Shown here one piece after another: positions 27,603 to 49,910 of a stretch of 64,000 bases of DNA; the stretch's first letter is position 1, and the number at the start of each line of letters is the position of its first letter. Source of the stretch: Candidatus Staskawiczbacteria bacterium RIFCSPHIGHO2_02_FULL_42_22 (GTDB lineage Bacteria; Patescibacteriota; Minisyncoccia; Minisyncoccales; Staskawiczbacteraceae). Where the stretch lies: positions 8,578-72,577 of the forward strand of contig MHOT01000010.1 in assembly GCA_001820175.1 (NCBI GenBank), in the 5' to 3' direction. The notes under the pieces are model-generated. The model ran no database searches. It had not been told where the DNA came from and saw nothing but the letters and a program-made list of their open reading frames with translations. A program made the position numbers and the translations under genes.

Positions 27603-27673
27603 AGGCCCGGATGGGAATTGCACCCATGTACACGGTTTTGCAGACCGTTCTCTGGCTACTTGAGTACCGGGCC
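27603..27673 (-). tRNA. tRNA-Cys, anticodon GCA
   Basis: Acceptor GGCCCGG/CCGGGCC, stem ACGGT/ACCGT, loop CTGCAAA, T loop TGCAATT. Confidence 0.8.
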
Positions 27674-29653: not shown

Positions 29654-29794
29654 ATGATGCCAAAGTAAGATCCGTTTCGCTCGAACGGATCTTTTATATT
29701 ACTTGTCTAAATGTAAATTTTAAAGATTGCTTCGCTGCGGCTCGCAATGACGGTTTAGAATAATTAGGTCAATTAGTATAATTAGAATAATTCG

Positions 29795-31892: not shown

Positions 31893-33340
31893 GTAACTGC
31901 TCACAACCCCGAGTGAAATCACAGGCAAATATGTGGATAAAAAAACGTCATTTTCCCTCGTAAAACGTGGTAAAATGAAGCCATGCCACGAGGTAAATTA
32001 AGCAACGAAAGCAGGCTTCAAATCAGGGTTACCAGACTCCAGAATAGTGTTAGAATCCTCCAAGAAAAAGTATCAAACCTGCAACGTCAAAACAAAGTTA
32101 AGGATAGAAAAATCGAAATCCTGGAAGCATTGCTGGTCAACAAAGAAGCCCAGCGCAAGGAGTTGCTTTCGTATTTGTACAAACCAGGCAAGAAAGATGG
32201 CCCAGTCAAACCCAAAGGCAAAAAACCTGGCAGTCCCGCCCATCACCGCCCAATTCCCAAAGAAGAAGATGTCAGTGAGCGCCATGAGTACCGCCTTAAC
32301 AAATGTCCCATGTGCACCCACCCTGTTGGCGATGCGGTTGATACGGTAGTTAAGTGGGAAGAAGATATCGACTTAAAACCCCGGCCGATCATCAAAAAAC
32401 ATACCATCACTCGCCACTGGTGCGGCCACTGTGAAACATATGTGAAAGCCAAGAATATTCCCGACACCTCCCGTATCGGTATCAATGTGATGGGGTACAT
32501 TTTGTACGCAAGGTATAGGCTCCGCCTGCCACTCAACAAAATCCAAGAAAGTTTAAGGGATTTGTATAACTTCAAGATATCTGAAAATGAAATCGTCCAA
32601 AAACTCAAAGAAACCCAAACCCTGTTCGGTAAAGACTACGAAGCCATCACCATTTTAATCCAAGAGGCCACGAAGGTTTATGCCGATGAAACTGGTTGGA
32701 AGATGGAAGGAAAAAGCTGGTGGCTGTGGGTGTTTGTCACTAACCGGGGCGTCCAATACGTCATTGAAGACACGCGTGGCAAAGGCGTGGTTCAAAAAGC
32801 TTTGGGAGACAAGAAAGACCGAGTTATCATTTCTGACGGTTATGCTGCTTACCAAAACCTCCCCGGCGACAAACAGCAGTGCTGGGTGCACCTGTTGCGA
32901 AAAGCCAAACTGCATTCCTTGATGCTCTACGAAGATTTAGTGGTTTTGTACAAGAAACTACTCCTTGAATTGGAAAAACCGATACCAGAAAGACAATCTG
33001 AAAAATTACTCCAAGACTTCGACCTTCTTTTAAAAAAAGAGTATTCAGATATTGAAGTCCACCTAGTCAAACAACGAATGCAAAAACACCGGCCATTTCT
33101 TTTCACGTGCTTAAAGTACGAAGGAGTTTTGCCCGAAAACAATACAGCTGAACGTGCTATTCGATTGCAGGTGGTCATGCGAAAAATCTTTGGGAGCTCA
33201 CGTTCGCTGGCAGGCGTGCAAGCACATCAAGTCAATTCTTCGGTCGTTGAAACTCTGCGCCGCCAGAATCCAGACGCTTCTTTTTTCGATGTAGTCCTGC
33301 CCTTGCTTCAGAAACGTCGCTCGGGGTTGTGAGCAGTTAC
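31893..33340 (+). mobile_element. IS66-family insertion sequence (single-ORF type) with 8-bp target-site duplication
   Basis: IRL gtaactgctcacaaccccgag / IRR ctcggggttgtgagcagttac; gctcggcg at 31885-31892 and 33341-33348. Confidence 0.85.
31983..33332 (+). CDS. IS66-family DDE transposase
   Basis: Zn-finger CPMC...CGHC, YADETGW, ISDGYAAY, QQCWVHLLR, NNTAERAIR. Confidence 0.85.
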   Translation: MPRGKLSNESRLQIRVTRLQNSVRILQEKVSNLQRQNKVKDRKIEILEALLVNKEAQRKELLSYLYKPGKKDGPVKPKGKKPGSPAHHRPIPKEEDVSERHEYRLNKCPMCTHPVGDAVDTVVKWEEDIDLKPRPIIKKHTITRHWCGHCETYVKAKNIPDTSRIGINVMGYILYARYRLRLPLNKIQESLRDLYNFKISENEIVQKLKETQTLFGKDYEAITILIQEATKVYADETGWKMEGKSWWLWVFVTNRGVQYVIEDTRGKGVVQKALGDKKDRVIISDGYAAYQNLPGDKQQCWVHLLRKAKLHSLMLYEDLVVLYKKLLLELEKPIPERQSEKLLQDFDLLLKKEYSDIEVHLVKQRMQKHRPFLFTCLKYEGVLPENNTAERAIRLQVVMRKIFGSSRSLAGVQAHQVNSSVVETLRRQNPDASFFDVVLPLLQKRRSGL

Positions 33341-33365
33341 GCTCGGCGGTAACTGCTCACTGGCC

Positions 33366-33550
33366 AAATCGTCATTGCGGGGTGCACCGAAGCAGGGTAC
33401 AATACTGCACCCTGCGAAGCCAGGCATAGTATTGTGCCTGGCGAAGCAATCCCATCGTCACTCTTGTTTAGATTGCCGCGTCGTCCACGATTGCGATCGG
33501 GACTCCTCGCAATGACGGCCGGAAGGCGCACGAGGTGTGAGGGGTTACGC
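33366..33550. repeat. GTCATTGCGAG repeat, copy R4
   Basis: cgtcattgcgggg...cgaagcaatc...ctcctcgcaatgacgg. Confidence 0.75.
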
Positions 33551-33814
33551 TCGGCGGACGTTATCTTATTGAATTGTTTTCCACATAAATACTTTTCTTA
33601 TTGTAAAGGGTATGTGGTACAATTAATAAAAGTGGCGATCCGAATAATCCGAATTTGCATCCGAATGTTCCGAATACGTCGTTACGTTATTAGGATCATT
33701 CGGATGATATTCGTCCCGATGTCCCGACTTCGGTCGCGGACATACGGGATCCCGTATAAATTTAATGAAATTAAATTTATCGGGATAAATTAGGATCGCC
33801 CTCGCGAAGCGACT

Positions 33815-35569
33815 ATGAAGGTTGACCCTGACAAATTATTAAAATTTATTTTGGAAGCGGGCCTCATTACCGAAAAGCAGTTTGCCGATGTCCTGGCAAA
33901 GAGCAAAAAGTCCAACCAAGAAGTGGCAGACATCTTGGTTTCTGACAAATTAATTACCCAAAAAGAACTGATAAAAATAGAGGCCTATATTTTGGGAATT
34001 CCTTTTATCAATTTGGAAGGCGAAGTCATCGCCCCCGCTATTTTAAAAATTATTCCCGAATCCATTGCCCGGGCCCACAACATTGTGGCGTTTCGAAAAA
34101 ATGACAACAACTTGGAAGTGGCCATGGTAGACCCCGAGGATTTACGCACCATTGCCTTTATTGAAAAAACCATGCCGTCGATAAAAATTCTGCCCCGATT
34201 AACTACTCCAGAAAGCATTAAAAATGTCTTGGGCCAGTACCAAAAAACCCTGGAAACGGAATTTAAAGATATTATCCAGTCAAGCGACCAAACGGAAATT
34301 AAGCACATTAAGGAGGGGGACCTATACGAGGGGAAAGAAGAAATAAAAAAAGCGGCTGAAGATGTGCCAATTATAAAAATTGTCGATACCCTACTCAAGC
34401 ACGCTATTTTGCAAGATACCTCCGATATCCATATTGAGCCGCTCGAAAAAGAAGTAATCGTGCGTTACCGGGTTGACGGCATTTTGCACGATGTGATGAC
34501 TTTGCCCATTTCCACGGCGCTTGGCATTGTGGCCCGCATCAAAGTGCTTTCCAATTTAAAGCTCGACGAACATCGCCTACCCCAAGACGGCCGTTTTAAA
34601 ATTGAAACTAATGAATTTAAATATTCAGTGAGGGTTTCGGTATTGCCGGTGTTTAATGGTGAAAAAATTGTGATGCGGCTCTTGGCTGAAAACACCAAGT
34701 CCGCCTCGTTGGATAAATTGGGTTTTTCAGGGAAGGTATTAAAACAAATTCAGGATAACTTACAAAAATCCTCAGGTATGATATTGATTACCGGTCCTAC
34801 GGGGTCGGGAAAAACCACTACCTTGTATGCCATGATGGAAATTCTTAATACCCCCGAGGTGAATATTTCCACCGTAGAAGACCCCATTGAATACCGAATG
34901 CCTCGGGTTAATCAAACCCAGGTCAATGCCCAGATTGGCTTGACGTTTGCGGCGGGACTGCGTGTTTTGGTGCGGCAAGACCCGGATATTATCATGGTGG
35001 GAGAAATCAGAGACGATGAAACCGCGGGCCTGGCCATTAACGCCGCGCTGACCGGGCACCTGGTGCTTTCTACCCTGCACACCACTGAAGCGGCGGGTGC
35101 CATTCCGCGCCTGATTGACATGAAAGCTGAGCCATTTTTAATTTCCTCAACCGTGGATTTAATTATTGCCCAGCGACTGGTACGGAAATTCGCCGGTGAA
35201 AAAGAAAAATATACATTAAATGCTTCTGAATTAGCCAATGTGCAAAAATATTGCAACCTGGAAAAGATTTTGAAAATTTTAAAAGAGGATAAAATAGTAA
35301 AACCAAAGGCGGCCGTAAAAGACATTGAATTTTATCGGCCCAAGCCGGGAAAGGATTCAAGCGATGGATACAAAGGGCGGCTGGGGATTGTGGAGGTTTT
35401 GAGGGTGAGTGAGCCCATTCGCGAATTAATTATAAAAAGATCCAGCACCCGCGAAATTGCCAATCAGGCCATACAAGAGGGCATGCGTACCATGGTGGAA
35501 GACGGATTTGTTAAAGCGGCGCTGGGACTGACATCGATTGAGGAAATCTTGAGAGTGATCACCGAATAA
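33815..35569 (+). CDS. pilB: Type IV pilus assembly ATPase PilB/GspE
   Basis: Walker A GPTGSGKTTT, Asp box, His box, Walker B IIMVGEIRD. Confidence 0.9.
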   Translation: MKVDPDKLLKFILEAGLITEKQFADVLAKSKKSNQEVADILVSDKLITQKELIKIEAYILGIPFINLEGEVIAPAILKIIPESIARAHNIVAFRKNDNNLEVAMVDPEDLRTIAFIEKTMPSIKILPRLTTPESIKNVLGQYQKTLETEFKDIIQSSDQTEIKHIKEGDLYEGKEEIKKAAEDVPIIKIVDTLLKHAILQDTSDIHIEPLEKEVIVRYRVDGILHDVMTLPISTALGIVARIKVLSNLKLDEHRLPQDGRFKIETNEFKYSVRVSVLPVFNGEKIVMRLLAENTKSASLDKLGFSGKVLKQIQDNLQKSSGMILITGPTGSGKTTTLYAMMEILNTPEVNISTVEDPIEYRMPRVNQTQVNAQIGLTFAAGLRVLVRQDPDIIMVGEIRDDETAGLAINAALTGHLVLSTLHTTEAAGAIPRLIDMKAEPFLISSTVDLIIAQRLVRKFAGEKEKYTLNASELANVQKYCNLEKILKILKEDKIVKPKAAVKDIEFYRPKPGKDSSDGYKGRLGIVEVLRVSEPIRELIIKRSSTREIANQAIQEGMRTMVEDGFVKAALGLTSIEEILRVITE

Positions 35570-35570
35570 A

Positions 35571-35643
35571 ACATTTGACAATTGACATTTGACAATTGAC
35601 CAGCGTTTCGTTGGTCAAATGTCAATGGTTAATGGTCAATGGT
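35571..35643. repeat. Word-stutter hairpin (TTGACA/ATTGAC words)
   Basis: acatttgacaattgacatttgacaattgaccagcgtttcgttggtcaaatgtcaatggttaatggtcaatgg. Confidence 0.8.
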
Positions 35644-35651
35644 AGTTTAAC

Positions 35652-36866
35652 GTGCCCAACTATTTTTACACCGCCAAATCATTTGACGGCCAAACCAAAA
35701 CCGGAACCCTATTTGCCAACGATATTATGCAGCTTGCCAAGGCCTTAAAAGCCGAAAATATGCTGCTGATTAAGGCAATTTCTTCTGACCAAAAAAAGAA
35801 GGGGTCTTGGAATATGCTAATCCCCTCGTTTGGCGTAAGCACCAAGGAAAAAATCATGATGACAAGGAATTTATGGATCATGTTTTCAGCGGGACTGTCT
35901 TTGGTAAAAATTTTCGACATTTTATCGGCTCAAACAAAAAACACCAAGTTAAAAAATATTATGCTCAATGTGAATGTTATGCTTAATAAAGGGGAATCGT
36001 TTTCTGACGCTTTGGCAAGGTATCCCAAGGTCTTCAATGACTTTTTTTTAAGCATGGTAAAGATTGGGGAAGAATCAGGAACGCTTGAGGCAACATTTGA
36101 AATATTGTCCAACCACATGGACCGCGACTGGGAACTAAAATCGAAAATACGGGGGGCGCTCATTTATCCTTGCATCATTTTAATTGTCATGGGCGGAATT
36201 GGCATTGTGGTCTCAACTTTCGTGTTGCCGAAATTTTCTTCTTTTTTACTGGGCATGAATATCCCCCTGCCTCTTTACACTAGAATTTTAATTGGCCTTG
36301 GCACCTATTCACAGCGGTATTGGTATTTGTCGCTGGTGATTCCCGTGGTTTTGGCATACGCCTTTTTTATGGCCATGAAGACCCGGACGGGGCGATTGAC
36401 CCGGGATACCATACTCTTGCGCGTACCACTGCTTTCTTCTTTTATTAAAAAGTCCAACGCTACAATCATTATAAGATCCTTAAGTTCATTGAATAGTTCT
36501 GGCATTTCTTTGGTGCGGTCATTGGAAATTACGGGTGCTACGGCACCAAACATTTACTTTAAAAATGCCCTCAATAATGCCATAGAAAAAGTAAAAAAGG
36601 GAGAAAAATTATCCAATGCGTTAAAACCCTACGCAAAAATTTTTCCTTTTGGGGCGATTGATATGATGGAGGTGGGTGAAGAAACGGGAAAAACGTCACT
36701 GGTATTAAAAAAACTGGCTGAATTTTATGAGCAAGAAGTGATTGAAGAGACCAAGAATTTTTCTGTTATCATTGAGCCGCTCTTGTTGATTTTTCTGGGG
36801 CTCGTAGTGGCCTTCTTTGCCATTTCAATTATTGAACCGATGTATTCGTCATTAAAAAGCATTTGA
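35652..36866 (+). CDS. pilC: Type IV pilus platform protein PilC/GspF
   Basis: Two T2SS-F repeats, 3 TM segments, GTG start. Confidence 0.85.
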   Translation: MPNYFYTAKSFDGQTKTGTLFANDIMQLAKALKAENMLLIKAISSDQKKKGSWNMLIPSFGVSTKEKIMMTRNLWIMFSAGLSLVKIFDILSAQTKNTKLKNIMLNVNVMLNKGESFSDALARYPKVFNDFFLSMVKIGEESGTLEATFEILSNHMDRDWELKSKIRGALIYPCIILIVMGGIGIVVSTFVLPKFSSFLLGMNIPLPLYTRILIGLGTYSQRYWYLSLVIPVVLAYAFFMAMKTRTGRLTRDTILLRVPLLSSFIKKSNATIIIRSLSSLNSSGISLVRSLEITGATAPNIYFKNALNNAIEKVKKGEKLSNALKPYAKIFPFGAIDMMEVGEETGKTSLVLKKLAEFYEQEVIEETKNFSVIIEPLLLIFLGLVVAFFAISIIEPMYSSLKSI

Positions 36867-36935
36867 CCATTGACATTTGACTTTTGACTGACGAAAACGA
36901 GCAGCATTTGATAATTGACATTTGGCTTATGGCTT

Positions 36936-37310
36936 ATGAAAAAATTTAGATTCCGACAATTTCAAATCTATAAAGATGCCCTACAATTTCAAAAAGAATT
37001 AAAGAATTTGAGCCGGGAAAAATTTCCAAGGGAGGAGCAATTTTGTTTAACTTCTCAATTATGGCGCGCATTAGATTCTATTATTTTAAATATCGCGGAG
37101 GGCGCCGATAGAGGAACCGATAAAGACTTTGCGCATTTTTTAAATATTTCACATACCTCGCTAAATGAAGTTGTGGCTTGTTTGGACTTAGCAGTGAGTA
37201 ACAGTTATATTCCCGAAAATGAAAATAATATCTTCTTAATAAGAGCAGAGAATCTGGCAAATCAAATTACCGCCTTTAGAAGAAAATTATTAAAAGAACC
37301 CACTAAATAG
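36936..37310 (+). CDS. Four-helix-bundle protein (23S rRNA intervening-sequence protein family)
   Basis: F.IYKDAL.F......L.....FP.EE...LTSQL.RA..SI.LNIAEG...GTDKDF..FL.IS..SL.E. Confidence 0.75.
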   Translation: MKKFRFRQFQIYKDALQFQKELKNLSREKFPREEQFCLTSQLWRALDSIILNIAEGADRGTDKDFAHFLNISHTSLNEVVACLDLAVSNSYIPENENNIFLIRAENLANQITAFRRKLLKEPTK

Positions 37311-37358
37311 AAGATAACAATTGACGTTTAACTATTAACAGGTGACTAAAAAACATCT

Positions 37359-38276
37359 GTGAATAGTCAAAGGTCGATTGTCAAAGGTCAAATGTCAAAT
37401 GTCAAATGTTCCATGTTTTATGCGTCTGGTTTTACCTTACTTGAGTTAATGATTGTCTTAACTATTTTAGTCACGGTGGGGGCCGTTGTTATTCCTTCCG
37501 TCGCGCTGCTGCAAAAAAACCCAAAACTGACCAATACGGCCGAGGAGGTCATTGGCGCACTAACAACGGCTCAAAATAAAACCGTATCATCGGAGGGAAA
37601 TAGCCAATACGGTGTTTTCATTAAAACCACGGCCTCTCCTCACCAATATATTTTATTTAAGGGAGCAAGCTATGCTTCACGCGAGACCTCTTTTGATCAA
37701 CCGTTTTCTATTCCTGCCACAGTTGAATTTTATACGATTGACGGAGGAGTCGGGGAGGTGGTATTTGATAAATTAACTGGCGCTACTGCCAATGTTGGAA
37801 ATATTTCTTTACGCTTAAAGGATGCGCCCGCTCAAACCAAAATTATTTACATAAGCGAAGCAGGGACGACAAGTTATACGGCGCCTTCAATTCCCTTGGA
37901 TACCCGCACCAAGGATTCCCGCCATGTGGATTTTAATTATAGTCGAACTATCAATACTGTTACTGAAAATATCGTCCTAACATTCAATGGTAATTTTGTG
38001 CAAACTATTCCTGTGAATGATAACATAAACGATGGTCAGATTGACTGGCAAGGGACTTTTAATATTGGTGGACAAAACCAAACGGTGGTAATTCATACCT
38101 TAAGATTAAACAATCCCGACACCCGTTTTTCGGTATTTCGAGATCGAAGATTGAACACCAAAACCCTTGCTATAACCCTTTCTGGCGATGCAACAGGCAC
38201 TTTGGCAGAATATTCGGCCGATGGTTTAACCACCAGCTTCGATTCCATTTACGTTGATAATTTTGAGTGGCAATAA
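37359..38276 (+). CDS. Prepilin-type N-terminal domain protein (pilin-like 1)
   Basis: G|FTLLELMIVLTILVTVGAVV class III signal; real start probably an ATG in the word repeat (MSNVKCSMFYASG). Confidence 0.75.
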   Translation: MNSQRSIVKGQMSNVKCSMFYASGFTLLELMIVLTILVTVGAVVIPSVALLQKNPKLTNTAEEVIGALTTAQNKTVSSEGNSQYGVFIKTTASPHQYILFKGASYASRETSFDQPFSIPATVEFYTIDGGVGEVVFDKLTGATANVGNISLRLKDAPAQTKIIYISEAGTTSYTAPSIPLDTRTKDSRHVDFNYSRTINTVTENIVLTFNGNFVQTIPVNDNINDGQIDWQGTFNIGGQNQTVVIHTLRLNNPDTRFSVFRDRRLNTKTLAITLSGDATGTLAEYSADGLTTSFDSIYVDNFEWQ

Positions 38277-38290
38277 CACCATTTTTACTA

Positions 38291-38454
38291 AAGACCTACT
38301 GCGTAAAGGTTTTCGTAGCGAGCCGCGCATATTTTGTAGCGAGAAAAGCAAAGCGCGAAGAGGCATATTGAACTTAAATCTGTCGATGAGCGATTGGCTT
38401 TTCGCAGCCAAAATATGCGCGGCGCAGTAGAAAAATCTTTACGCAGTAGGTCTT
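38291..38454. mobile_element. MITE, TAGACCT family (B2), inverted copy of 19175-19337
   Basis: aagacctactgcgtaaag...ctttacgcagtaggtct, begins 15 nt after the pilin stop. Confidence 0.85.
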
Positions 38455-38553
38455 AAGTAAAAATGAAATTTCAAATTTCTAATTTCTAATTTCTAATAAT
38501 AAGGTGTCGAAATTTTCACAAAGGAAAATTTCGACGGATTTAATCATTTCAAA

Positions 38554-39069
38554 TTGATTTCAAATTTCAAATTTCAAATTACAAATTCCAGCAGAGGGTC
38601 TATTCTTTTGGAGGCGTTCATTGCCGTGATGGTCATCGGTATTGTTTTTGCGCTGCTGCTGGATGTCGCCGCCCTGTCACTTAAAACATCCACATTTGTG
38701 CGCCAGAGCAGCCAGGCCAATTTTATGGCCAAGGAGTCCATGGAAACCGTGCGGAGCTTTCGAGATGGAACAACTTGGGCCTCAAATGGTCTTGGAACTT
38801 TAAACACCGGAGCTGCCAATCCGTACTATTTTATCCTTAACACTGGGACAAACCCCGCAACCTGGACATTATCATCCGGAACAGAAACCGTAGGAATTTT
38901 TACCCGGAACATTGTTTTTGACAAAGTGTCGCGCGATCCTACCACTCAACACATTGAAAGCATCTATAATGCTTCTCATGATGACCCTAATACCCGGAGG
39001 GCTACCGTTACCGTCAGTTTTTTGTCAAAAACACTGACGTTAGTTAGCTATTTTACTAATTGGAAATAA
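38554..39069 (+). CDS. Pilin-like protein 2
   Basis: RG|SILLEAFIAVMVIGIVFALLL hydrophobic N-terminal helix with Glu5. Confidence 0.6.
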   Translation: MISNFKFQITNSSRGSILLEAFIAVMVIGIVFALLLDVAALSLKTSTFVRQSSQANFMAKESMETVRSFRDGTTWASNGLGTLNTGAANPYYFILNTGTNPATWTLSSGTETVGIFTRNIVFDKVSRDPTTQHIESIYNASHDDPNTRRATVTVSFLSKTLTLVSYFTNWK

Positions 39070-39070
39070 C

Positions 39071-39197
39071 AAAATAACCATTAACAATTAACATTTGACA
39101 ATTAACCATTAACCGAAAGCGAAGTCGGTGTTAAAGGTCAAATGTCAATGGTTAAATGTTTTAATGGTCAATGGTCAAATGTCAAAGGTTAAATGTT
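39071..39197. repeat. Word-stutter hairpin (TTAAC/TTGAC words)
   Basis: Left arm aaccattaacaattaacatttgacaattaaccattaacc; right arm ggtcaaatgtcaatggttaaatgttttaatggtcaatggtcaaatgtcaaaggttaaatg. Confidence 0.8.
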
Positions 39198-39697
39198 CAC
39201 AAAGCGGGTTTACCTTGCTGGAAATAATTATTTACTTTGCCGTTGTTTCATTGGTACTACTATTAACTAGTTCTTTTATCTTTTACTTTATGCGGGCCGA
39301 CTACCAAACTCAGGGCAATCGGGAAGTGCTGGACAACGCCAGGCGGGCCTTGGAGATAATATCCTTTGAAGTCAACGGCGCCACCGGCATTTATACCCCC
39401 ACTACCGCCGCCACCCAGCTTTCCCTGGAAACACCCCGCTATTTGCCCCAAGGAGAAACCACTACATACATTGATTTTTTTGTATGTGGCACACGCCTTT
39501 GTTTAAAAAAAGAGTCACAAAGTCCCATATTTTTAACTTCAGATACCGTCCAGGTCAACAGCATTGCCTTTACCCAAATTTCTATTAATGGCGCCATGTC
39601 AATTAGAACAAACCTTGCCCTTCAATACAAAAATACCCTCGGCGCTCTTCAACCAGCAGTAACGTTGTATTCGACGGCCTCGTTAAGAAAATATTAA
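39128..39697 (+). CDS. Prepilin-type N-terminal domain protein (pilin-like 3)
   Basis: MSKVKCSQSG|FTLLEIIIYFAVVSLVLLL. Confidence 0.7.
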   Translation: MLKVKCQWLNVLMVNGQMSKVKCSQSGFTLLEIIIYFAVVSLVLLLTSSFIFYFMRADYQTQGNREVLDNARRALEIISFEVNGATGIYTPTTAATQLSLETPRYLPQGETTTYIDFFVCGTRLCLKKESQSPIFLTSDTVQVNSIAFTQISINGAMSIRTNLALQYKNTLGALQPAVTLYSTASLRKY

Positions 39698-39698
39698 A

Positions 39699-39900
39699 TA
39701 GACCTGTTGCGTATTAAGGATTGTCGCGAAAATTGAAGATTTTGGATCAGAAATTTGATAGAATTTTTCGGCTTGCCTCCAGGCCCGGAGATGGGGAAAT
39801 TTGTTGCTACAAATTTACCCACATCTTGACCGAAAAATTATTGAAAATTTCTGGCCAAAAGATGCAATTTGCAGCAAATCCTTAATACGCAACGGGTCTA
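39699..39900. mobile_element. MITE, TAGACCT family (A4); inverted relative to A3 and lacking its nested module
   Basis: tagacctgttgcgtattaagg...ccttaatacgcaacgggtcta; starts 2 nt after the pilin stop. Confidence 0.8.
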
Positions 39901-39998
39901 ATATAGGACTTGCGCGCTTGCGCCGCTCCTTGAGATTGCTTCGCTGCGGCTCGCAATGACGCAAATACGCAAACCCCAAAATCGTAACATCGTGAATT

Positions 39999-41249
39999 AT
40001 GTTCAACAACACACTAAAAAATCAGCGAGGGTTTATTGCTTCTATTACCACCTTATTGGTTTTGATATTTATATTAAGCATTGCCACAAGTATGAGCGTA
40101 TTGGTGTTTGGCCGCCAACGAATTTCCACCAATACCGTAAACTCCACCCAGTCATATTACACCGCCGAGGCGGGTGTCGAGGATTCACTGTTGCGGCTAA
40201 AAAACAATCCCCAAATGTCCCCCTTGTCGTATAGTTTAACCATTAATAATTCGACGGCCAATGTGGTTATTCCCGCTATTGTGGGGGGGTCCCGAACCAT
40301 TTCTTCTCTGGGGAGCAAGATTGGCCTCACTAAAAAAACCGAGGTGGTGTATACCCTAGATAGCGAAGGCGTTTCTTTCTTTTACGGTGCTCAAATAGGC
40401 GAAGGAGGGTTGCAAATGTCCAATAGCAGCCGGATCAATGGCAGCGTATTTTCTAATGGCAACGTTGCGGGCTCGGGAAGCGCAACCATTGAAAATGATG
40501 TCATTGTTGCCGGTAATGGACACACCTTAAGCGGCATGCGCGTAAAAGGAAATGCCACGGTATACAGTTGCCTTAATTCTACGATTGACGGCAATTTAAC
40601 GTATGTCAGCGGAGGAACCAATACCTGTACCGTAGGTGGCAGCATTGTGGTGCAAAGCGATGAAATTGAGTCGCAGCCCATGCCGATTTCCCAGAGCCAA
40701 ATCACCGAATGGAAAAACGATGCCCTTGCCGGCGGCACCATGGGAAACGTCACCCTTTCAGGGAGCCAAACCATGTCGTTGGGCCCTAAAAAAATTAACG
40801 GCAATTTATCTATTAGCAATAGCGCGGTACTCACCTTGACGGGAACTGTGCATGTTACCGGTAACATTACCATAAGCAATAGCGCAAAAATAAAGTTAGC
40901 CAGTTCCTATGGCTCTTTGAGCGGGGTTATTATTGCCGATGGAACTATTTCCCCCAGTAACTCTTCTGCATTGCAAGGGTCCGGCCAAACCGGAAGCTAC
41001 CTATTAGTGCTTTCCACCAATACATCGAATTCAGCCATTGCGGTGGGCAATAGTGCTTCGGGAGCCATTTTTTACACCTCCGCCGGAGGCATTAGCGTAT
41101 CTAACAGTTTCAGCGCCCGCGAAGTAACGGGTTATAAATTAATTATGAGCAACAGCGCTACCATTACCTACGAAAGCGGACTAGCAAATGTCTTTTTCTC
41201 TAGTGGACCGACTGGCGGTTGGAAGGTCACTGATTGGCAGGAAAAGTGA
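39999..41249 (+). CDS. PilX-like minor pilin / pilus tip-associated protein
   Basis: QRGFIASITTLLVLIFILSIA N-terminus, YYTAEAGVEDSL, Gly/Ser/Asn-rich beta-helix-like C-terminus. Confidence 0.55.
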   Translation: MFNNTLKNQRGFIASITTLLVLIFILSIATSMSVLVFGRQRISTNTVNSTQSYYTAEAGVEDSLLRLKNNPQMSPLSYSLTINNSTANVVIPAIVGGSRTISSLGSKIGLTKKTEVVYTLDSEGVSFFYGAQIGEGGLQMSNSSRINGSVFSNGNVAGSGSATIENDVIVAGNGHTLSGMRVKGNATVYSCLNSTIDGNLTYVSGGTNTCTVGGSIVVQSDEIESQPMPISQSQITEWKNDALAGGTMGNVTLSGSQTMSLGPKKINGNLSISNSAVLTLTGTVHVTGNITISNSAKIKLASSYGSLSGVIIADGTISPSNSSALQGSGQTGSYLLVLSTNTSNSAIAVGNSASGAIFYTSAGGISVSNSFSAREVTGYKLIMSNSATITYESGLANVFFSSGPTGGWKVTDWQEK

Positions 41250-41298
41250 CATTCCCCGGATTTCTTTATCAAGTATTTTAATGGTACAATAAAAAGAA

Positions 41299-41483
41299 AC
41301 TCTAAATTCTAAATCCTAAACTCTAAACAAATCACAAATTCCAATGTTCTAAATTTCAAACCGTTTTAGAATTTAGAGTTTAGAATTTAGAATTTCGTTT
41401 TCTTTTTAGGATTTAGAGTTTAGAATTTAGAATTTCGTTTTCTTTTTAGGATTTAGAGTTTAGAATTTAGGATTTCTTTTACG
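41299..41483. repeat. Word-stutter hairpin whose right arm is a roughly 40-bp unit repeated three times
   Basis: ttagRatttagagtttagaatttagRatttc(gttttc)ttt x3 facing ctctaaattctaaatcctaaactctaaac. Confidence 0.8.
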
Positions 41484-41486
41484 AAT

Positions 41487-42578
41487 ATGGCTAGATTTTT
41501 ATCATTGGAAAAAGAAGTATTTGGGTTGGACATCAGTGATTTGTCGTTGAAAATTATAAAACTTAAAAAAAGGGGGGATTTTTTTAGTGTAACATCATAT
41601 AACCACATGGATATACCGTCCGGAATCATAGAAAAAGGGGTGATTAAAAAAGAAGACGACTTAGTGAAAATAATTATCGCGGCATGTAAAAACGCGAAGG
41701 GGCAAAAACTGAATACGCGCTACGTTATATCTTCCTTGCCGGAAGAACGATCTTTTTTACAGGTAATCCAGATGCCAACCATGGAGCCGGAAGAATTGCG
41801 TCTGGCTGTTCCCTTTGAAGCGGAAAATTACATCCCTTTGCCAATGGACGATGTGTACCTTGATTTTGAAATTACTACCCCTGCTAAAAATCACGTAAAC
41901 CACCTTGATGTGCTGATTGCCGCCATGCCAAAAAAAATTGTAAATTCGTACGTATCGTGCCTTAAAAAAGCGGGCCTGGTGCCCGTGGCGCTTGAGGTTG
42001 AAGGGGAAGCAATCGCTCGCGCCCTAATAAAAGATGACAACAGCATTGCCCCGGTAGTCCTCATTGATTTTGGAAAAAACGGTACCGATTTTATTGTCTT
42101 TGCGGGGCACTCCATACAATTTACCTGCTCAATTCCTATTTCAAGCCACCAACTGACCCAAGTCATTGCCAAAGCGCTGCAGATAGAAACCAGAAAGGCC
42201 GAAAAATTAAAAATGAAATTTAACCTTGATATACCGGCCAAAGATGCCCGATCAAAAAAAATCTTTCTTGCCATGGAGCCGATACTTAACGAATTAACAA
42301 ATCAGATTAAAAAATACCTTAATTTTTACCAGGAACACGCTTCCCACGGACACCGCGATGTGCCGGAAACAATACAAAAAATTTTTATTTGCGGTGGCGG
42401 AGCAAACTTGCAGGGCTTAACCGGATTCCTCTCCCAAAAGTTGCACGTTACTGCGGAGCTTAAGGATTTTTGGGCCAATGTTTCTTCTCGACAACTGCAA
42501 GACGGGGTAAATAAAAATTTTTTATCGTTTGCCACTGCGCTAGGGCTTGCCCTGCGGGGCTTCAAGAATAGCGAATAG
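41487..42578 (+). CDS. pilM: Type IV pilus assembly protein PilM (actin-like ATPase fold)
   Basis: FGLDISDLSLKIIKLKK start, size and position before the PilN-like gene. Confidence 0.75.
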   Translation: MARFLSLEKEVFGLDISDLSLKIIKLKKRGDFFSVTSYNHMDIPSGIIEKGVIKKEDDLVKIIIAACKNAKGQKLNTRYVISSLPEERSFLQVIQMPTMEPEELRLAVPFEAENYIPLPMDDVYLDFEITTPAKNHVNHLDVLIAAMPKKIVNSYVSCLKKAGLVPVALEVEGEAIARALIKDDNSIAPVVLIDFGKNGTDFIVFAGHSIQFTCSIPISSHQLTQVIAKALQIETRKAEKLKMKFNLDIPAKDARSKKIFLAMEPILNELTNQIKKYLNFYQEHASHGHRDVPETIQKIFICGGGANLQGLTGFLSQKLHVTAELKDFWANVSSRQLQDGVNKNFLSFATALGLALRGFKNSE

Positions 42579-42631
42579 TAAATTAGTGAGTAGTTTGTAC
42601 TCGTTCTACTCACTACCAACTACCAACTAAC

Positions 42632-43177
42632 ATGATCAACCTTCTTCCTCCCGGGGAAAAACAAAAATTAATCACCGAAACCAACCAGAAAGTGATTATT
42701 ATTCTGGGTCTTGTCGCCCTAGTGCCTTTAGTGTGCGTTATGTTGGTACTGTTATCACTGAACTTTTATCTGTTGGGAGAAATTAATTCAAAAAACATTA
42801 TTTTGGCTCAAGCCCAAAAAACCTACCAGACCCCGGATTTTTTAATGGTTACAAATGAGATGAAAAAAAAGAATGCCACCATGATTTGGTTATCATCTTT
42901 TTATAATAAAGAAATGAATATGTCAGATGTTTTACAGCAAGTATCGGGATTTGCTTTTCCCGAAGAAGTATACTTAACCAACCTTTCTATCATCCGTCAA
43001 GACGATGAAATATTAAAAATATCGGCAACGGGCTTTAGCCAATCCCGGGACGATCTTTTGGTATTCCAAAAAAAGATCCAAGAACATCCGGCCATTAAGG
43101 AACTCTCTTTTTCCCCTGAAAGCTGGGTAAACGCGCAAAACGCCACGTTTCAATTAACATTTCAAGTACAACAATAA
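42632..43177 (+). CDS. pilN: PilN-like fimbrial assembly protein
   Basis: MINLLP motif followed by a single TM segment. Confidence 0.65.
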   Translation: MINLLPPGEKQKLITETNQKVIIILGLVALVPLVCVMLVLLSLNFYLLGEINSKNIILAQAQKTYQTPDFLMVTNEMKKKNATMIWLSSFYNKEMNMSDVLQQVSGFAFPEEVYLTNLSIIRQDDEILKISATGFSQSRDDLLVFQKKIQEHPAIKELSFSPESWVNAQNATFQLTFQVQQ

Positions 43178-43215
43178 TTCTTTTTTCACTAATTGAGTTT
43201 GGTAGATAATGCGAT

Positions 43216-43306
43216 GTCGTCATTGCGAGGAGTCCCGATCGCAATCGTGGACGACGAAGCAATCTTAAGGGCGAACTGAGATTGCTTCGCTGTGGCTCGC
43301 AATGAC
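43216..43306. repeat. GTCATTGCGAG repeat, copy R5
   Basis: gtcgtcattgcgaggagtcccgatcgcaatcgtggacgacgaagcaatc...gattgcttcgctgtggctcgcaatgac. Confidence 0.8.
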
Positions 43307-43337
43307 AAGGAAAAACTATTATTTTAAGCCCATAATT

Positions 43338-43880
43338 ATGCGTACGTTATCGCTTAGTAAAATACGTATTACCTTGATTGCATGTTGCCTTGCAATGCTT
43401 CTTGCAGTGTTTTTTATTTGGCTACTGTGGATCAATGTTTCCAAGAACACCGGTCAGTTAGTTGCCATAAAAAATAGTACCGTAGAGCTGCAAATGCAAA
43501 ATGACGAAATTGAACGTTTTAAGAAAAATTACAACACCTATAAACCAAATCTGGATGCGATTGAAAAGTTGTTTGTGGATCCAAGAAATCCGGTGGATTT
43601 TATTGAATTCTTGGAAGATACTGCCGCGTCCTCCAATTTACAGTTTTATGTTTCCCTGGCAAAAGACGCCAAACTTGAGGCAAACGGCATTGGGTTTCGA
43701 ATTTCAGTGTCCGGTAATTTTTTTGATATAGTACGTTTTACCAATAACATGGAACATGGGCCGTACCTTATTAGTATTAAAACCGTCACTTTGGGCCAGC
43801 TTTCAGGCAAAGATGAGGCAACGCAGTTGTCGGGAAACATAGACGCTAATTTTTTAATACAGGTATTTACATCAATATGA
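43338..43880 (+). CDS. pilO: PilO-like pilus assembly protein
   Basis: TM + coiled-coil + C-terminal ferredoxin-like region, position after pilN; ATG 43338 chosen because the tracked start lies in repeat R5. Confidence 0.5.
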   Translation: MRTLSLSKIRITLIACCLAMLLAVFFIWLLWINVSKNTGQLVAIKNSTVELQMQNDEIERFKKNYNTYKPNLDAIEKLFVDPRNPVDFIEFLEDTAASSNLQFYVSLAKDAKLEANGIGFRISVSGNFFDIVRFTNNMEHGPYLISIKTVTLGQLSGKDEATQLSGNIDANFLIQVFTSI

Positions 43881-44188
43881 AATTCAACGTGTCAGAATTA
43901 TTTAAAGCAAAAAAAGATGCTATACGGAAAATTCCCTTTACTTTGGCATCCCATGCTTTTTTAATCATGGTATTTTTTATTTTTTTAGTTATAATGGTAG
44001 GAGCGCTTTTATTTTACCAACACGGCGTATGGTTGGCGCGAAAAGTACCGGAACCTGCCGGAACTATTGTTCGGTTCAACGAAGCGGCATACAAAGCCAT
44101 ATTGCAAGAATGGCAGGGTCGCCAACAATCCCTTGGCGAGCCCCTGGGCGAGAAATATATAAATCCTTTCTATAGCGTCACGCCATAA
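43877..44188 (+). CDS. Small membrane protein, pilus-cluster associated
   Basis: 103 aa, one TM segment, ATGA overlap with the preceding gene. Confidence 0.45.
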   Translation: MKFNVSELFKAKKDAIRKIPFTLASHAFLIMVFFIFLVIMVGALLFYQHGVWLARKVPEPAGTIVRFNEAAYKAILQEWQGRQQSLGEPLGEKYINPFYSVTP

Positions 44189-44261
44189 TAGAAAATCTAA
44201 ATCCTAAATTCTAAACTCTAAATTCTAAAACGGTTAGAGTTTAGAATTTGTTTGCAAACCG

Positions 44262-44498
44262 TGAATCACGAAATGCTTTCGAGGGATTTTCTCCAAATTT
44301 TGAGCGAAAATGTGATAGAATTCTGAGGCATAGCAAGCTCTGCCGAAGAATTATAATTTGCTAAGCGAGAGAGAAAAAGAAGAATAGCAATTATTCTTTT
44401 TCGAACGAGCGACAAATTATACTAGGTATAGCGCATTTGCAGCCAAAATTTGGAGAAAAGACCCGAAAAGTCTTTTCAAACTGGCATTTCGTGATTCA
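44262..44498. mobile_element. MITE (TGAATCACGAAATGC TIRs) sharing an internal module with 21911-22214
   Basis: tgaatcacgaaatgc...gcatttcgtgattca; the internal ataatttgctaagcgagagagaaaaagaagaatagcaattattc... is the reverse complement of 22000-22080. Confidence 0.75.
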
Positions 44499-44517
44499 AG
44501 GTTTAAGCAAAAGTATT

Positions 44518-44892
44518 ATGAATAAAGTCAATAAAAAAGTGTTAATTGTAGAAGACGATGAGGACTTCATTTTTATCCTTGAAAAAAAGTTTACCATGGA
44601 GGGGTTTTCGGTTCTGAAAGCAAAAGATGGCGAAGAAGGGATGGCGGTGGCTAAAAAAGAAAAACCGGATTTGGTTATCACCGATATCTTAATGCCTAAA
44701 ATGGACGGCATCGTTATGGCAAAAAAAATACGGGAAACAGATCCTGATGTACCCATTATTTTTTTAACCAACATTAAGGATGTTGACTACACTATCCCTG
44801 TGCAAAAGTCAGACAAATTTGAATACCTAATCAAGTCCGACACCCGGATTGACGACATCGTTGCCAAAGCAAAAGCCACCCTGAAAGTATAA
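44518..44892 (+). CDS. Single-domain response regulator (CheY-like receiver)
   Basis: VLIVEDDED....DLVITDILMPKMDG....K; ATG 44518 because the tracked 5' extension is MITE sequence. Confidence 0.8.
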   Translation: MNKVNKKVLIVEDDEDFIFILEKKFTMEGFSVLKAKDGEEGMAVAKKEKPDLVITDILMPKMDGIVMAKKIRETDPDVPIIFLTNIKDVDYTIPVQKSDKFEYLIKSDTRIDDIVAKAKATLKV

Positions 44893-45174
44893 CAAAAAAG
44901 ACATTCGCAAAATGTCTTTTTTGGTACATGGCCGGCGGACTTTGTCTGTCGAGCCCACTATGGCAGTCGAAGGCGGAGAGTAGTGGATGACGTTAGAACC
45001 TATTTCCAAAGCACCACCGACCGCTTCTTTATTCCAATGCTATCATTGGAAACAGCTAAAATCAATTAGAATTTTTACTATCCTACGCTACTACTCACTA
45101 TTGTTTTGTAATAAAAAGCCCCAGAAGTCCAAAGGACGACTGGGGTCTATTGTTTTTATTATTTTGAAAGGACT

Positions 45175-45402
45175 TTATTTGCTCTGCTGCATTTTTTCCT
45201 TCGCCTCTTTAAGGTAGCCATCGTAAGTGGCAAGTTCAATGGTGCTATACAGAGTTGCGGAAACTTCGGGCAGCTCATTCTTAATCAGAGTGAGCATAGC
45301 AATGAGGCAGGCTTCGGGGTTTTCTCGTGCCTTTTTCATTTTTTCTTCACCAAAGTGTCCCATCACTTCTTCCACCAGTTGAGCTGTCGCTTTGGTAAGC
45401 AT
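45175..45402 (-). CDS. Hypothetical protein (third gene of GC-rich 3-gene operon)
   Basis: 75 aa; followed by - strand terminator ccccag...ctgggg with T-run near 45115-45150. Confidence 0.45.
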   Translation of the reverse strand: MLTKATAQLVEEVMGHFGEEKMKKARENPEACLIAMLTLIKNELPEVSATLYSTIELATYDGYLKEAKEKMQQSK

Positions 45403-45436
45403 AGCGTTCTCCTTTCAGAGTGGGTTGGAAACCTGA

Positions 45437-45823: not shown

Positions 45824-45855
45824 CCGAACTACTTGGGTCGCCTCCTCTATGAGTT

Positions 45856-46218: not shown

Positions 46219-46302
46219 ATCCTTTCTTTGGGAAAAGTGAATTTCACTATGTCAAAGACCTGCCTGTCTTATATCAATTTTATAGCATAAAGTCAAAAAT
46301 GG

Positions 46303-46716: not shown

Positions 46717-46724
46717 AGTTTCTT

Positions 46725-47174: not shown

Positions 47175-47223
47175 ATATTGTTTTACTATACTATAACAAA
47201 AATCTCCCGTTTCTGGGAGTTTT

Positions 47224-49898: not shown

Positions 49899-49910
49899 CA
49901 GTTATGATGG

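Follow-up and report, generated by a model that had tools for sequence, protein, structure and literature searches.

The question raised by this window, a stretch of 64,000 nt from Candidatus Staskawiczbacteria, a groundwater Parcubacterium of the Rifle aquifer, is what the long imperfect hairpins between its genes are and how they came to be there. At about 16 intergenic sites, inverted tandem arrays of a short word form imperfect hairpins of 60-190 nt. The nine that the earlier note had listed were all recovered (337-411, 24903-24982, 35571-35643, 39071-39197, 41288-41483, 44192-44250, 49911-50086, 58841-58984 and 59647-59778), and their assignment to one structural class is supported: degenerate tandem repeats of period 7 (period 9 at 49911 and 59647; TRF) make up each arm, the words of the two arms are complementary, and CG-containing apices of the AAACG...CGTTT type are found. 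These intergenic word-repeat hairpins are real. They fold better than dinucleotide shuffles on both strands (RNA z = -3 to -9; DNA folds z = -3.3 to -7.4), and 25 of the 33 arrays of period 6-10 fall in the non-coding 18% of the window (binomial p ~1e-12). Low-complexity repeats are prone to mis-assembly in metagenomes. However, assemblies made independently, from different samples and with different assemblers, agree across the hairpins at 100% or 99.99% identity; the hairpins are therefore not assembly noise, and with the strong z-scores and enrichment statistics this leaves an assembly or chance artefact next to no probability. Dozens of related contigs, and finished plasmids too, show this architecture. 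In relatives, about 0.9 Mb of sequence yielded 44 hairpin units, nearly all intergenic, whose 3' edge usually lies 1-21 nt from the next start.

Word and context vary between sites. The hairpin at 337-411 has the words GGAACAT/ATGTTMY and an AAACG..CGTTT apex (z -6.2 on the forward strand; DNA z -6.0), and that at 24903-24982, of the TCTAAAY class, lies in the P-type ATPase/AI-2E transporter spacer (z -5.6). The tract at 16607-16688, listed earlier among single-arm or related tracts, is not single-armed; it is a full hairpin (C, GAATCTK/CAAGATWC) at 16584-16684 in the rluA-like/rplS spacer (z -8 to -9; -7.9/-9.1), which runs over the last codons of the gene upstream. The site at 33640-33800 is a composite of three hairpins, that at 42583-42630 (pilM/pilN spacer) a short hairpin with ACTACCA x2.6 (z -3.7), and that at 57262-57300 mainly a GC-rich terminator-like stem. 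Unpaired arrays include a solo arm of the 9-nt AATTAG class (29755-29792), AAATCCT x3.7 between two tRNA genes (54594-54619) and AAATCCC x4.6 (11041-11072, forward strand); the last encodes the C-terminal tail of FtsH, GKSQIPNHKSQINSKSKK up to the stop, confirming that a repeat has been read into this protein.

A PF05635 gene between inverted arrays

The main lead to the nature of these elements is a gene within a hairpin, which was absent from the earlier note. This PF05635 / TIGR02436 gene (36936-37310, forward strand; E 1.3e-26) encodes a 23S rRNA IVS protein, a four-helix-bundle, Avd-like protein with structural relatives PDB 2GSC and 2RLD, and forms the loop of a cassette at 36860-37409. 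The left array, CATTTGAC... (36860-36888, forward strand), pairs across about 480 nt with positions 37380-37408 of the right array, GTCAAAK x6.3 (37366-37409, forward strand), so that the gene is enclosed; in MFE and centroid folds the cassette is closed by its own two arrays (z -4.07), the right one overlapping the start and leader of the pilin-like gene that follows. Its TTGACA/TTAACA word class also includes two ORF-less hairpins, one filling the pilB-pilC spacer from 1 nt past the stop to 8 nt short of the start (35571-35643; z -8.4), the other lying between two pilin-like genes (39071-39197; z -3.1/-6.2). TTGACA-class arrays form the two ends, inverted to each other, of a small PF05635 cassette that is apparently mobile, and over all loci PF05635 is enclosed by five of the six best long-range inverted array pairs.

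Across CPR classes, the TTGACA-type PF05635 subfamily (68-85% identity) was found in seven unrelated, co-oriented operon contexts (pilin, GT/AsnB, def/fmt, PPDK/Ham1, PilB-like/pilin, GT/MreB) in Staskawicz-, Uhr-, Wolfe-, Gracili- and Peregrinibacteria, with ACAWTTGAC/ACAATTAAC ... GTCAAWTGT/GTTAATTGT on its flanks in every case. In two further subfamilies the flanks are GTAGAA/TTCTAC 9-mers and AGTTTAAAAG/TAAAACTAT, respectively; TTTCGGG/AAACCCG (L014) and GGTGATC-type words (L015/16) are also linked to PF05635. On cyanobacterial and Riemerella plasmids, word arrays abut nine of ten PF05635 genes, mostly as complementary pairs (e.g. AGTAGGG/TCCCTAC, ACAGGTG/CTGTCAC, AGGAGATA/ATCTCCTA, GGTTTAA/TAAACCT). 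In the window, the direct gene link is limited to the TTGACA class: as related Parcubacteria, searched with a profile over about 0.9 Mb, gave no further PF05635 gene except one pseudogene, the link for TCTAAAY, AATTAG, GAAATTT, GAATCTK and CAAAATK is an extrapolation.

The reading that we favour, with a probability of roughly 0.55, is that the sites are IVS-like palindromic cassettes and their ORF-less, MITE-like derivatives, grown by slippage and with stems that would, by analogy, serve as RNase III substrates. All would be copies of one class of palindromic intergenic elements with arms of 7-nt, sometimes 9-nt, words; the ORF-less TTGACA-class hairpins, and by extension the other word classes, would be non-autonomous derivatives or solo stems, standing to the cassettes as MITEs do to insertion sequences or REPINs to RAYT genes. 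Such elements would colonise AT-rich spacers, typically ending a few nt short of the next start codon, and displace one another over evolutionary time, whilst replication slippage would lengthen and shorten their arms. Transcribed arms would pair into an imperfect stem of ~30 bp which, judging from the 23S rRNA IVS, is probably an RNase III substrate, and cleavage may leave the cassette or hairpin excised or insulated from neighbouring cistrons. No RNase III was located in this genome.

Comparison with mobile and repeated elements

The 23S rRNA IVS of Coxiella and Leptospira has terminal inverted repeats, a stem of ~28-29 bp and an S23p/PF05635 ORF of ~120 aa, and resembles the cassette at 36860-37409 in total length (~430-550 nt) and fold. 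In Coxiella the terminal stem is of 28 bp, with the PF05635 ORF in the loop, and RNase III cuts mid-stem; these IVS are regarded as selfish and horizontally acquired (PMC4990558). Unlike them, the window cassette sits in mRNA operon spacers and not in 23S helix 25/45, its stem consists of tandem 7-nt words, there are many ORF-less copies, and RNase III cleavage is putative. REP/REPIN sequences and their RAYT genes offer a second parallel: short palindromic intergenic repeats in many copies, a gene flanked by inverted cognate repeats, gene subfamilies with different repeats, and vertical persistence with turnover of loci. However, RAYT is a Y1 HUH transposase whereas PF05635 is a four-helix bundle without known nuclease or transposase fold, and REP/REPIN is a single imperfect palindrome of 20-40 nt whereas the window arms are tandem word arrays and lack the GTAG/CGTC tag. 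MITEs such as the Neisseria Correia elements likewise lack an ORF, carry inverted repeats, measure 70-190 nt and occupy intergenic and co-transcribed sites; they are present or absent between relatives, and some are RNase III substrates. In contrast, the terminal repeats of the window elements are internally repetitive, and no target-site duplication, precise or defined ends, or transposase, cognate IS transposases included, were found for them, the sole transposase of the window being that of IS66. To our knowledge, no mechanism of movement is known for a four-helix-bundle protein.

Word structure and growth of the arms

Each word comprises a conserved core of 5-6 nt, paired with the other arm, and a phase-locked spacer of 1-3 nt that is variable and unpaired; mismatches between arms are locked to the word phase, and arm-to-arm comparison gave no compensatory change or covariation at the unpaired spacer positions. 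Period 7 predominates in the window and its relatives (166 arrays, against 40 of period 6 and 45 of period 8), with a copy number that is flat up to ~5.5 units and then drops. A conserved core and variable spacer in both arms, and such a copy-number profile, might be expected if the arrays were bound, as DNA or RNA, by an oligomeric protein, each subunit holding one core and the hairpin potential being secondary. The PF05635 protein itself, a pentamer, would be one candidate, and a nucleoid protein or one of ribbon-helix-helix type another; the omega protein of plasmid pSM19035 binds 7-bp heptads, and Avd, a relative of PF05635 proteins, binds nucleic acid and reverse transcriptase. The homology of the family with Avd has been noted (PMC10053308), crystals of PF05635 relatives contain five chains (2GSC, 2RLD), and the words co-vary with PF05635 subfamily. 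Nevertheless, arrays beside PF05635 genes range from 2 to 17 units, several word classes accompany a single PF05635 gene in 64 kb, and a pairing constraint alone would also explain conserved cores and free spacers, so that protein binding appears a very improbable basis for the arrays.

Growth by slippage, as the earlier note had suggested, gains support from the arms themselves. Perfect tandem duplications of 14 nt and 40 nt are confined to one arm, and therefore indicate slippage on the arms; arm lengths are unequal and unit numbers differ between copies. The TCTAAAY-class hairpin at 41288-41483 (z -5.3/-7.5), ending 3 nt short of the pilM start, has a right arm made of a triplicated 40-nt unit (x3, 96%), and that at 44192-44250 (z -5.3) has arms of 5 and 2 units. 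At the 'nested' site 49911-50086 (element K; z -5.8/-8.3), outer 9-nt AATTAG arms are combined with a GC stem, TCCGCCGGCTGGCGGA, and an inner hairpin (TCTAAA/TTTAGAR, 49994-50032). Rather than by insertion, the nesting may have arisen by expansion of an inner array within one element family.

One-sided duplications and unequal arms would also follow from a purely local origin, in which a short duplication in an AT-rich spacer, or in an A-tract/T-tract flank of a small bidirectional terminator, is expanded by slippage and mirrored from arm to arm by template switching in quasi-palindromes, with no mobility and no PF05635 link beyond the TTGACA class. Consistent with this, 208 of 277 arrays lack an inverted partner, the words, like the empty spacers, are AT-rich, some low-complexity words (AAATTTC, CAAAAT) could have arisen more than once in spacers of this kind, and heptamers, which no other long simple repeat exceeds in frequency in bacteria, have been attributed to polymerase slippage (Mrazek 2007, summarised in PMC4679880). 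A GC stem-loop with an A-rich array on its left and a T-rich array on its right, moreover, is seen in K, L018, L019 and element B (9100-9204; AATTCAA and CATTTTG arrays). The latter ends 6 nt short of the FtsH start at 9211 and has a homologous copy in L018 (94% identity); its long stem is weak and energetically not significant (z -0.7 to -1.2, RNA and DNA folds).

Dispersal and turnover among relatives

We nevertheless consider a purely local origin unlikely, as specific word orders, and inner parts outside the repeats, are found again at non-orthologous sites of species whose trigger factors (Tig) are only 63-70% identical. Hairpin C matches L057:1771-1812 (95% over 42 nt) at such a site. 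Element G (38467-38590; z -4.5), in which AAATTTC-class arrays enclose a perfect inner hairpin, GTCGAAATTTTC..GAAAATTTCGAC, matches L020:11326-11417, after tig (84% over 92 nt), inner hairpin included; its outer stem is energetically not significant and absent from the DNA fold. The AATTAG class recurs with its AAATCCCAA/TTGGGATTT core, which forms the inner stem of the 9-nt-word hairpin filling the tig-clpP spacer of the window (59647-59778; z -7.5). Matches to other species at non-orthologous sites were obtained for 7/12 window hairpins versus 3/32 other non-tRNA spacers. Unit-shuffled controls still gave some cross-species hits (16/46, against 34/46 for the real sequences). The word classes themselves recur between species at non-orthologous sites, no other non-coding DNA is as conserved across species as the hairpins, and the PF05635 cassette keeps its words in seven unrelated contexts. 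The spread implied by an earlier suggestion of self-propagation is thus supported. The words also turn over: at the orthologous junctions, relatives have either nothing or a different word class. The tig-clpP spacer is empty (9-35 nt) in seven species and filled by different word classes in at least ten others, and the clpP-rny junction and the site upstream of the H+-PPase gene show similar turnover.

Position relative to transcription and translation signals

These three junctions are occupied in many species, and hairpins take up whole spacers, ending ~7 nt before start codons, as might be expected of RNA elements selected by the host: intercistronic processing sites, mRNA-end stabilisers, terminators/insulators or 5'-UTR structures. 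Their upkeep would be explained by a genome without Shine-Dalgarno sequences (present in 10/72 genes only) and with very short leaders; -10-like boxes lie at most 25 nt from the ATG. TAACTGA heptamer repeats, which are distributed over Beggiatoaceae, Cyanobacteria and Bacteroidetes, also lie a few nt upstream of the start codons of SD-less genes in Beggiatoaceae (PMC4679880); those of marine Beggiatoaceae, unlike the window arrays, are direct (one indirect case in 170), of a single word and without a hairpin. Host selection is, however, distinctly unlikely to account for the sites. Terminator-like consensus sites are at shuffle level, contrary to a terminator role, as are sigma-70-like sites, and no -10 lies at promoter spacing from the TTGACA words, which had been thought to multiply a promoter box. 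The hairpin at 58841-58984 (GAAATTT class; z -6.4), upstream of rny, lies downstream of a conserved terminator-like hairpin that clpP already possesses. Boxes of the -10 type are equally frequent with or without a hairpin (44% vs 50% of genes), and the tig-clpP spacer can be empty, as described above. Sense and antisense fold equally well (n=39, p=0.96; G-U pairs 88 vs 94), so the functional RNA strand, which mispairs were expected to reveal, is not inferable; with neither strand bias nor compensatory spacer change, RNA-level selection is not demonstrated. Single copies appear to be tolerated rather than required.

Relation to known heptamer repeats

The earlier view that such repeats lack a formal description holds only in part, since heptamer arrays have been reported in Xanthomonas and in the Nostoc trnL intron. 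A Xanthomonas genome has 70-75 sites with convergent inverted pairs capable of forming stem-loops (PMC4692102). In the P6b region of the Nostoc tRNA-Leu(UAA) intron, a stem-loop of 50-126 nt is built on one of two 7-nt motifs (TDNGATT/NNTGAGT), with 7-/14-nt indels, side stem-loops made by insertion and, at a single site, recurrent exchange of one motif class for the other (PMC4476775); unlike the window elements, this is one locus inside a cyanobacterial group I intron, described neither as a genome-wide family nor with a protein link. Intergenic 7-nt arrays are shared with cyanobacterial STRR, the long simple sequence repeats of Mrazek, Xanthomonas GGGAATC and Nostoc GGGGAYT, whereas the words of the window are AT-rich and fall into several classes per genome. 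Such arrays have been seen as G-quadruplex or simple repeats without a PF05635 connection; the PF05635 cassette connects bacterial 7-letter tandem repeats with a protein family.

Structure and setting of the hairpins

The gene content of the window agreed with that given in the earlier note, namely FtsH, a type IV pilus block (PilB, PilC, pilin-like genes and PilM/N/O), RNase Y, ClpP and trigger factor (Tig), and also includes an IS66 transposase and 15 tRNAs. The "stutter" hairpins reported there, imperfect hairpins in which each arm is a tandem array of a short word and the opposite arm carries its complement, were found to exist: TRF detected period-7 arrays in both arms of every hairpin listed, with period 9 at two sites, and the arms were paired as inverted repeats by a repeat finder. 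Their intergenic placement was likewise upheld: non-coding sequence makes up 18% of the window and holds 25 of the 33 arrays (p ~1e-12). Period 7 was the commonest when the window was taken together with ~0.9 Mb of related contigs (166 arrays, against 40 of period 6 and 45 of period 8). Being built of head-to-tail 7-nt units and mainly intergenic, the window hairpins match heptamer simple sequence repeats (STRR/LSSR), and they also have the terminal inverted repeats by which MITEs are defined.

The suggestion that these are genuine structures held when folding was compared with controls, as 13 of 15 tested sites beat dinucleotide shuffles as RNA on both strands (z -3 to -9) and 8 of 10 did so as DNA (z -3.3 to -7.4; 0-2 of 200 shuffles equally good). 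The exceptions were the all-A/T outer pairing of hairpin B (9100-9204) and the outer stem of hairpin G (38467-38590). Assembly noise can be ruled out, since JGI and megahit contigs from other samples run through the hairpins and are identical over 23815-45569 and 99.99% identical over 51210-64000. Between same-population assemblies the hairpins are identical and the sole differences fall within the IS66 copy; the nearest relative has a Tig only 76% identical. The IS66-family transposase region (31983-33332) differs at 14-24 positions in two other same-population assemblies (L007 and L008), which suggests several diverged copies, and is followed by a composite hairpin region (33640-33800) that includes TCCGAAT words.

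When each 5' arm was aligned to the reverse complement of its 3' arm, mismatches recurred at the same 1-3 positions of every word (positions 8, 0 and 1 of each 9-mer in hairpin K, 49911-50086; 3-4 of each heptamer in D, 24903-24982; 4 in C, 16584-16684), and the core was conserved and identical across all units of both arms. The mismatches are phase-locked to the word, so that each stem consists of perfect 5-6-bp helices in a row, split by regular small internal loops. Perfect duplications occur on one side only, such as ACATTTGACAATTG x2.1 and TTTAGAATTTAGAG x2.2, both at 100% (TRF), and in the TCTAAAY-class hairpin before pilM (41288-41483) a 40-nt unit is present three times at 96% in the right arm alone. 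Unit number and order also vary between copies of one word class. The proposal of slippage is thereby supported, these duplications and unit differences being the trace expected of slippage or unequal exchange that affects one arm independently of the other. Over all CPR loci, the copy number of period-7 arrays stays more or less level between 2 and ~5.5 units, beyond which it drops sharply, about fivefold; for periods 6, 8 and 9 it declines monotonically without such a plateau. In ~27 of 39 hairpins at co-directional junctions the 5' arm is C-rich and the 3' arm G-rich, a strand-symmetric excess; A/T polarity of the arms relative to transcription was dropped as meaningless for palindromes.

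Array sequence has in places been recruited into coding regions (L102:2878-, L106:2884-, window 37359-37409 and 11041-11094). Arms of the type (ATGTCAA)n, which offer an ATG in every unit and in all three frames, supply fmt and pilin-like genes with N-terminal extensions or leader peptides, and an AAATCCC array does indeed encode the FtsH tail, GKSQIPNHKSQINSKSKK, as had been claimed.

Turnover and dispersal

A genome and metagenome scan with trigger factor gave 83 loci from relatives, with Tig identities of 22-75%. Inverted partners within 220 nt were found for 69 of 277 arrays, above the 99th percentile of a positional null. Once merged, they make up 44 hairpin units, of which nearly all are intergenic even though 85% of the DNA is coding; 38 of the 44 stand at co-directional junctions, their 3' edge usually 1-21 nt before the next start codon. 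The comparison of orthologous intergenic regions for word turnover, recommended in the earlier note, showed that word classes do turn over and that many relatives have no hairpin at the same junction. The tig-clpP spacer is an empty 9-35 nt in seven species and is 96-154 nt with a stutter hairpin in at least 10 others, the word class differing in almost each; the clpP-rny spacer and that upstream of the H+-PPase gene follow the same empty/filled pattern.

Species whose Tig proteins are only 63-70% identical carry the same classes, including their non-repetitive inner parts, at sites that are not orthologous. Hairpin C is 95% identical over 42 nt to a sequence in the related locus L057, and G is 84% identical over 92 nt to one in L020, including the inner hairpin GTCGAAATTTTC...GAAAATTTCGAC, whilst the AATTAG class with a AAATCCCAA/TTGGGATTT core is found at three sites in the window, two in L020 and also in L057. 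Cross-species matches of this kind were obtained for 7 of 12 window hairpins as against 3 of 32 other non-tRNA spacers. The earlier description of a self-propagating or slippage-generated class is thus supported on both counts, slippage signatures and dispersal to non-orthologous sites, but local slippage alone is insufficient because this recurrence shows that the sequences have been dispersed. A CRISPR array was ruled out, the units being contiguous 7-9-nt words without spacers, and DNA uptake sequences were rejected, since each genome has several words and coding DNA has none of them.

Tests of RNA, promoter and terminator roles

Folding both strands and comparing mispairs had been put forward as a means of identifying the strand of function, and no difference was seen for the 39 hairpins at co-directional junctions, either in sense versus antisense folding (Wilcoxon p = 0.96) or in G-U pairs (88 vs 94). 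The proposed role as terminators fared no better: a scan of 33000-51000 gave 21 consensus sites against 19.4 expected, with no whole stutter hairpin hit, and instead of a short GC-rich stem and U-tract most stems are AT-rich, 30-45 bp and without a T-run, a GC stem being embedded only in B and K. The idea that TTGACA words multiply the -35 box found no support in the 48 sigma-70 sites (-10 hexamer 16-18 nt downstream) obtained versus 43.5 expected, none of them sense-oriented within hairpins E (35571-35643) or H (39071-39197); in addition, TTGACA arrays lie 3-20 nt from start codons and so leave no room for a -10 box. Shine-Dalgarno sequences are essentially absent from the genome (10 of 72 genes). 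TATAAT-like boxes cluster in the ~25 nt before start codons, a position suggestive of mRNAs that are leaderless or have very short leaders. These -10-like boxes are equally frequent upstream of hairpin-preceded and other genes.

The clpP gene has its own conserved terminator-like hairpin, upstream of stutter hairpin L (58841-58984). Given this and the null outcomes of the strand, consensus and -10-box tests, there is no positive evidence of host need for the hairpin structures, and many relatives lack them at the same junctions. Rfam 15 covariance models returned 15 tRNAs from the window and no other family at gathering score, and a HutP/TRAP-like UAG periodicity was discarded, as it fitted only two word classes. 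The clpP hairpin itself (ACTCACCATGTTrGnTGAGTTTTTTTGTTTG, 3' of the gene, ~58985-59054 on the minus strand) is kept in all relatives, the clpP-rny spacers concerned being those of L011, L012, L017-L021, L023, L027 and L057; in several it is followed by a second hairpin with a covarying stem (GGCTGCGCGC / GTCCCGCTC / GAAAATAATTG) and then by a conserved motif, AAAAAGTCTTAA.

A PF05635 gene enclosed by inverted arrays

Between pilC and a pilin-like gene, the TTGACA-class array at 36860-36888 has no local pairing and instead pairs in phase with that at 37380-37408 (26/29 by our own reading; aligner score 21.5). When 36852-37416 is folded, the whole cassette is closed by these arrays, in the MFE structure as well as in the centroid (z -4.07). 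The enclosed gene matches PF05635 (Pfam E 1.3e-26), the 23S rRNA intervening sequence (IVS) or four-helix-bundle protein family, members of which are homologous to Avd of diversity-generating retroelements (PMC10053308). The segment 36860-37409 is thus laid out as an IVS-type element, a PF05635 ORF enclosed by complementary termini forming a stable stem, but insertion into an rRNA helix is not seen, there being no rRNA in the window, and homologous cassettes also lie between protein-coding genes. REP/REPIN elements, in which repeats flank a cognate RAYT, do not fit, as the flanked gene is PF05635 and the genes called in the window include no Y1_Tnp/RAYT and no transposase other than IS66. IS66, the only nearby transposase, has no end similarity to the elements, and no consistent target duplication was found at the ends of AATTAG-class copies, which are fuzzy since the arms are repeats.

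Other Staskawiczbacteria, as well as Uhr-, Wolfe-, Gracili- and Peregrinibacteria, have homologues that are 68-85% identical to the cassette protein. In each of six further contexts (pilin/pilin, glycosyltransferase/AsnB, def/fmt, PPDK/Ham1, PilB-like/pilin and glycosyltransferase/MreB) the gene lies between co-oriented host genes and the same words flank it, with ACAWTTGAC/ACAATTAAC on its upstream side and GTCAAWTGT/GTTAATTGT on its downstream side. As the same TTGACA words bracket the gene in all contexts, hairpins E and H are read as ORF-less versions of the cassette ends, presumably derived from cassettes.

Generality of the association

The link extends beyond this subfamily. A second subfamily (the frameshifted copy L045, with L112 and L114 at tig-clpP) is bracketed by GTAGAA/TTCTAC 9-mers, and a 58%-identical relative between EF-Ts and PSP1 by AGTTTAAAAG/TAAAACTAT. 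On L014-L016, which are unrelated contigs, PF05635 genes are enclosed by arrays of TTTCGGG/AAACCCG or of GGTGATC-type words, and five of the six best long-range inverted array pairs across all loci (250-1000 nt apart) enclose a PF05635 gene. Of 10 PF05635 genes inspected on finished plasmids, 9 directly adjoin word arrays, for the most part in complementary pairs: AGTAGGG/TCCCTAC between nrdB and nrdA in Nostoc edaphicum, ACAGGTG/CTGTCAC between cas6 and cas4 in Anabaena 90, AGGAGATA/ATCTCCTA between cas10 and cmr3 in Picosynechococcus, GGTTTAA/TAAACCT in Riemerella and GTCAGGA/CTTCTGA in N. punctiforme and Aulosira. A profile search of ~0.9 Mb of relatives gave no PF05635 gene beyond L045, and neither a protein nor an alignment query matched one in viral contigs. 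Five chains are present in the PF05635 crystal entries 2GSC (Xanthomonas campestris) and 2RLD. Contigs L013-L016, which carry PF05635 genes, are labelled as Rhizobium, Chitinophaga and Bacteroidia MAGs (GC 0.42-0.44) and have very long arrays (TTGGTCY x28, GGTGATC x7-17); they are probably mis-binned and from another lineage.

Relation to known elements

The 23S rRNA IVS of Coxiella has the same plan as the window cassette, a 28-bp terminal stem with an ORF of this family in the loop, and is regarded as selfish and cut mid-stem by RNase III (PMC4990558). Because the cassette shares this plan, the stutter hairpins may be read as IVS-like palindromic elements in operon spacers, with few ORF-bearing and many ORF-less copies whose arms would evolve by slippage. 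By analogy, their stems are likely RNase III substrates. The ORF-less copies would derive from cassettes, the PF05635 protein may act in recognition or spread, and the other word classes would have cognate PF05635 genes elsewhere, none having been seen in the ~0.9 Mb of relatives.

More broadly, it is possible that PF05635 proteins and short-word arrays form one functional unit across CPR, Cyanobacteria and Bacteroidota, in which each subfamily travels with, and probably recognises, its own 7-9-nt inverted word, and that many bacterial heptamer repeats are the non-autonomous offspring of such cassettes; we would give this tentative reading a probability of about one in three. To our knowledge, records of heptamer repeats in cyanobacteria, xanthomonads, Beggiatoaceae and Bacteroidetes go back more than 30 years, with no agreement on their origin or function, and PF05635 is, as far as we know, a very common family with a known role only in diversity-generating retroelements. 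The subfamily-specific association offers a testable handle on both problems, through word binding, spread and RNase III stem cutting, and would also establish a novel type of small selfish cassette that inserts between the genes of operons. If true, the offspring would include the cyanobacterial STRR, the Xanthomonas GGGAATC pairs, the Nostoc trnL P6b repeats and the CPR junction hairpins, and it is this cross-phylum link that matters most, should it hold. In CPR genomes the elements account for a large part of the non-coding sequence between adjoining genes and are a likely cause of assembly breaks.

Among the long simple repeats of bacteria, heptamers are the most frequent kind (Mrazek 2007, as cited in PMC4679880), and GGGAATC arrays form 70-75 inverted pairs per Xanthomonas genome (PMC4692102). 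The P6b stem-loop of the Nostoc trnL intron is made of 7-nt motifs and shows class replacement and 7/14-nt indels (PMC4476775), and TAACTGA repeats lie just upstream of SD-less genes (PMC4679880). Among the papers searched, no account was found that ties heptamer arrays to PF05635 or describes them in CPR bacteria.

Other repeats and ORFs

A ~165-nt palindromic element (57-nt arms, 88% complementary) occurs at 38280-38465 and, in inverted orientation, at 19176-19338, one copy directly abutting stutter hairpin G. Dispersed repeats of 100-175 nt and 88-97% identity pair 19984-20158 with 21365-21539, 2424-2578 with 3876-4029, 39699-39841 with 22072-22214 and 44343-44444 with 21982-22083; the first pair is inverted and brackets an ORF at 20187-21356, and related sequence is found at L011:12020-12190 in a relative. 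An inverted repeat at 15678-15842 that is not of the stutter type (80-nt arms, 79% complementary, 5-nt loop) lies between a 305-aa unannotated ORF and a pseudouridine synthase gene. Three perfect inverted repeats are likewise not built of tandem words, these being a 26-nt palindrome at 51201-51252, 29-nt arms 126 nt apart at 51915-52098 and 25-nt arms 13 nt apart at 48251-48313. ORFs resembling LAGLIDADG and GIY-YIG homing endonucleases adjoin the tRNA clusters (17146-17814, 19352-19609 and 27656-28438).
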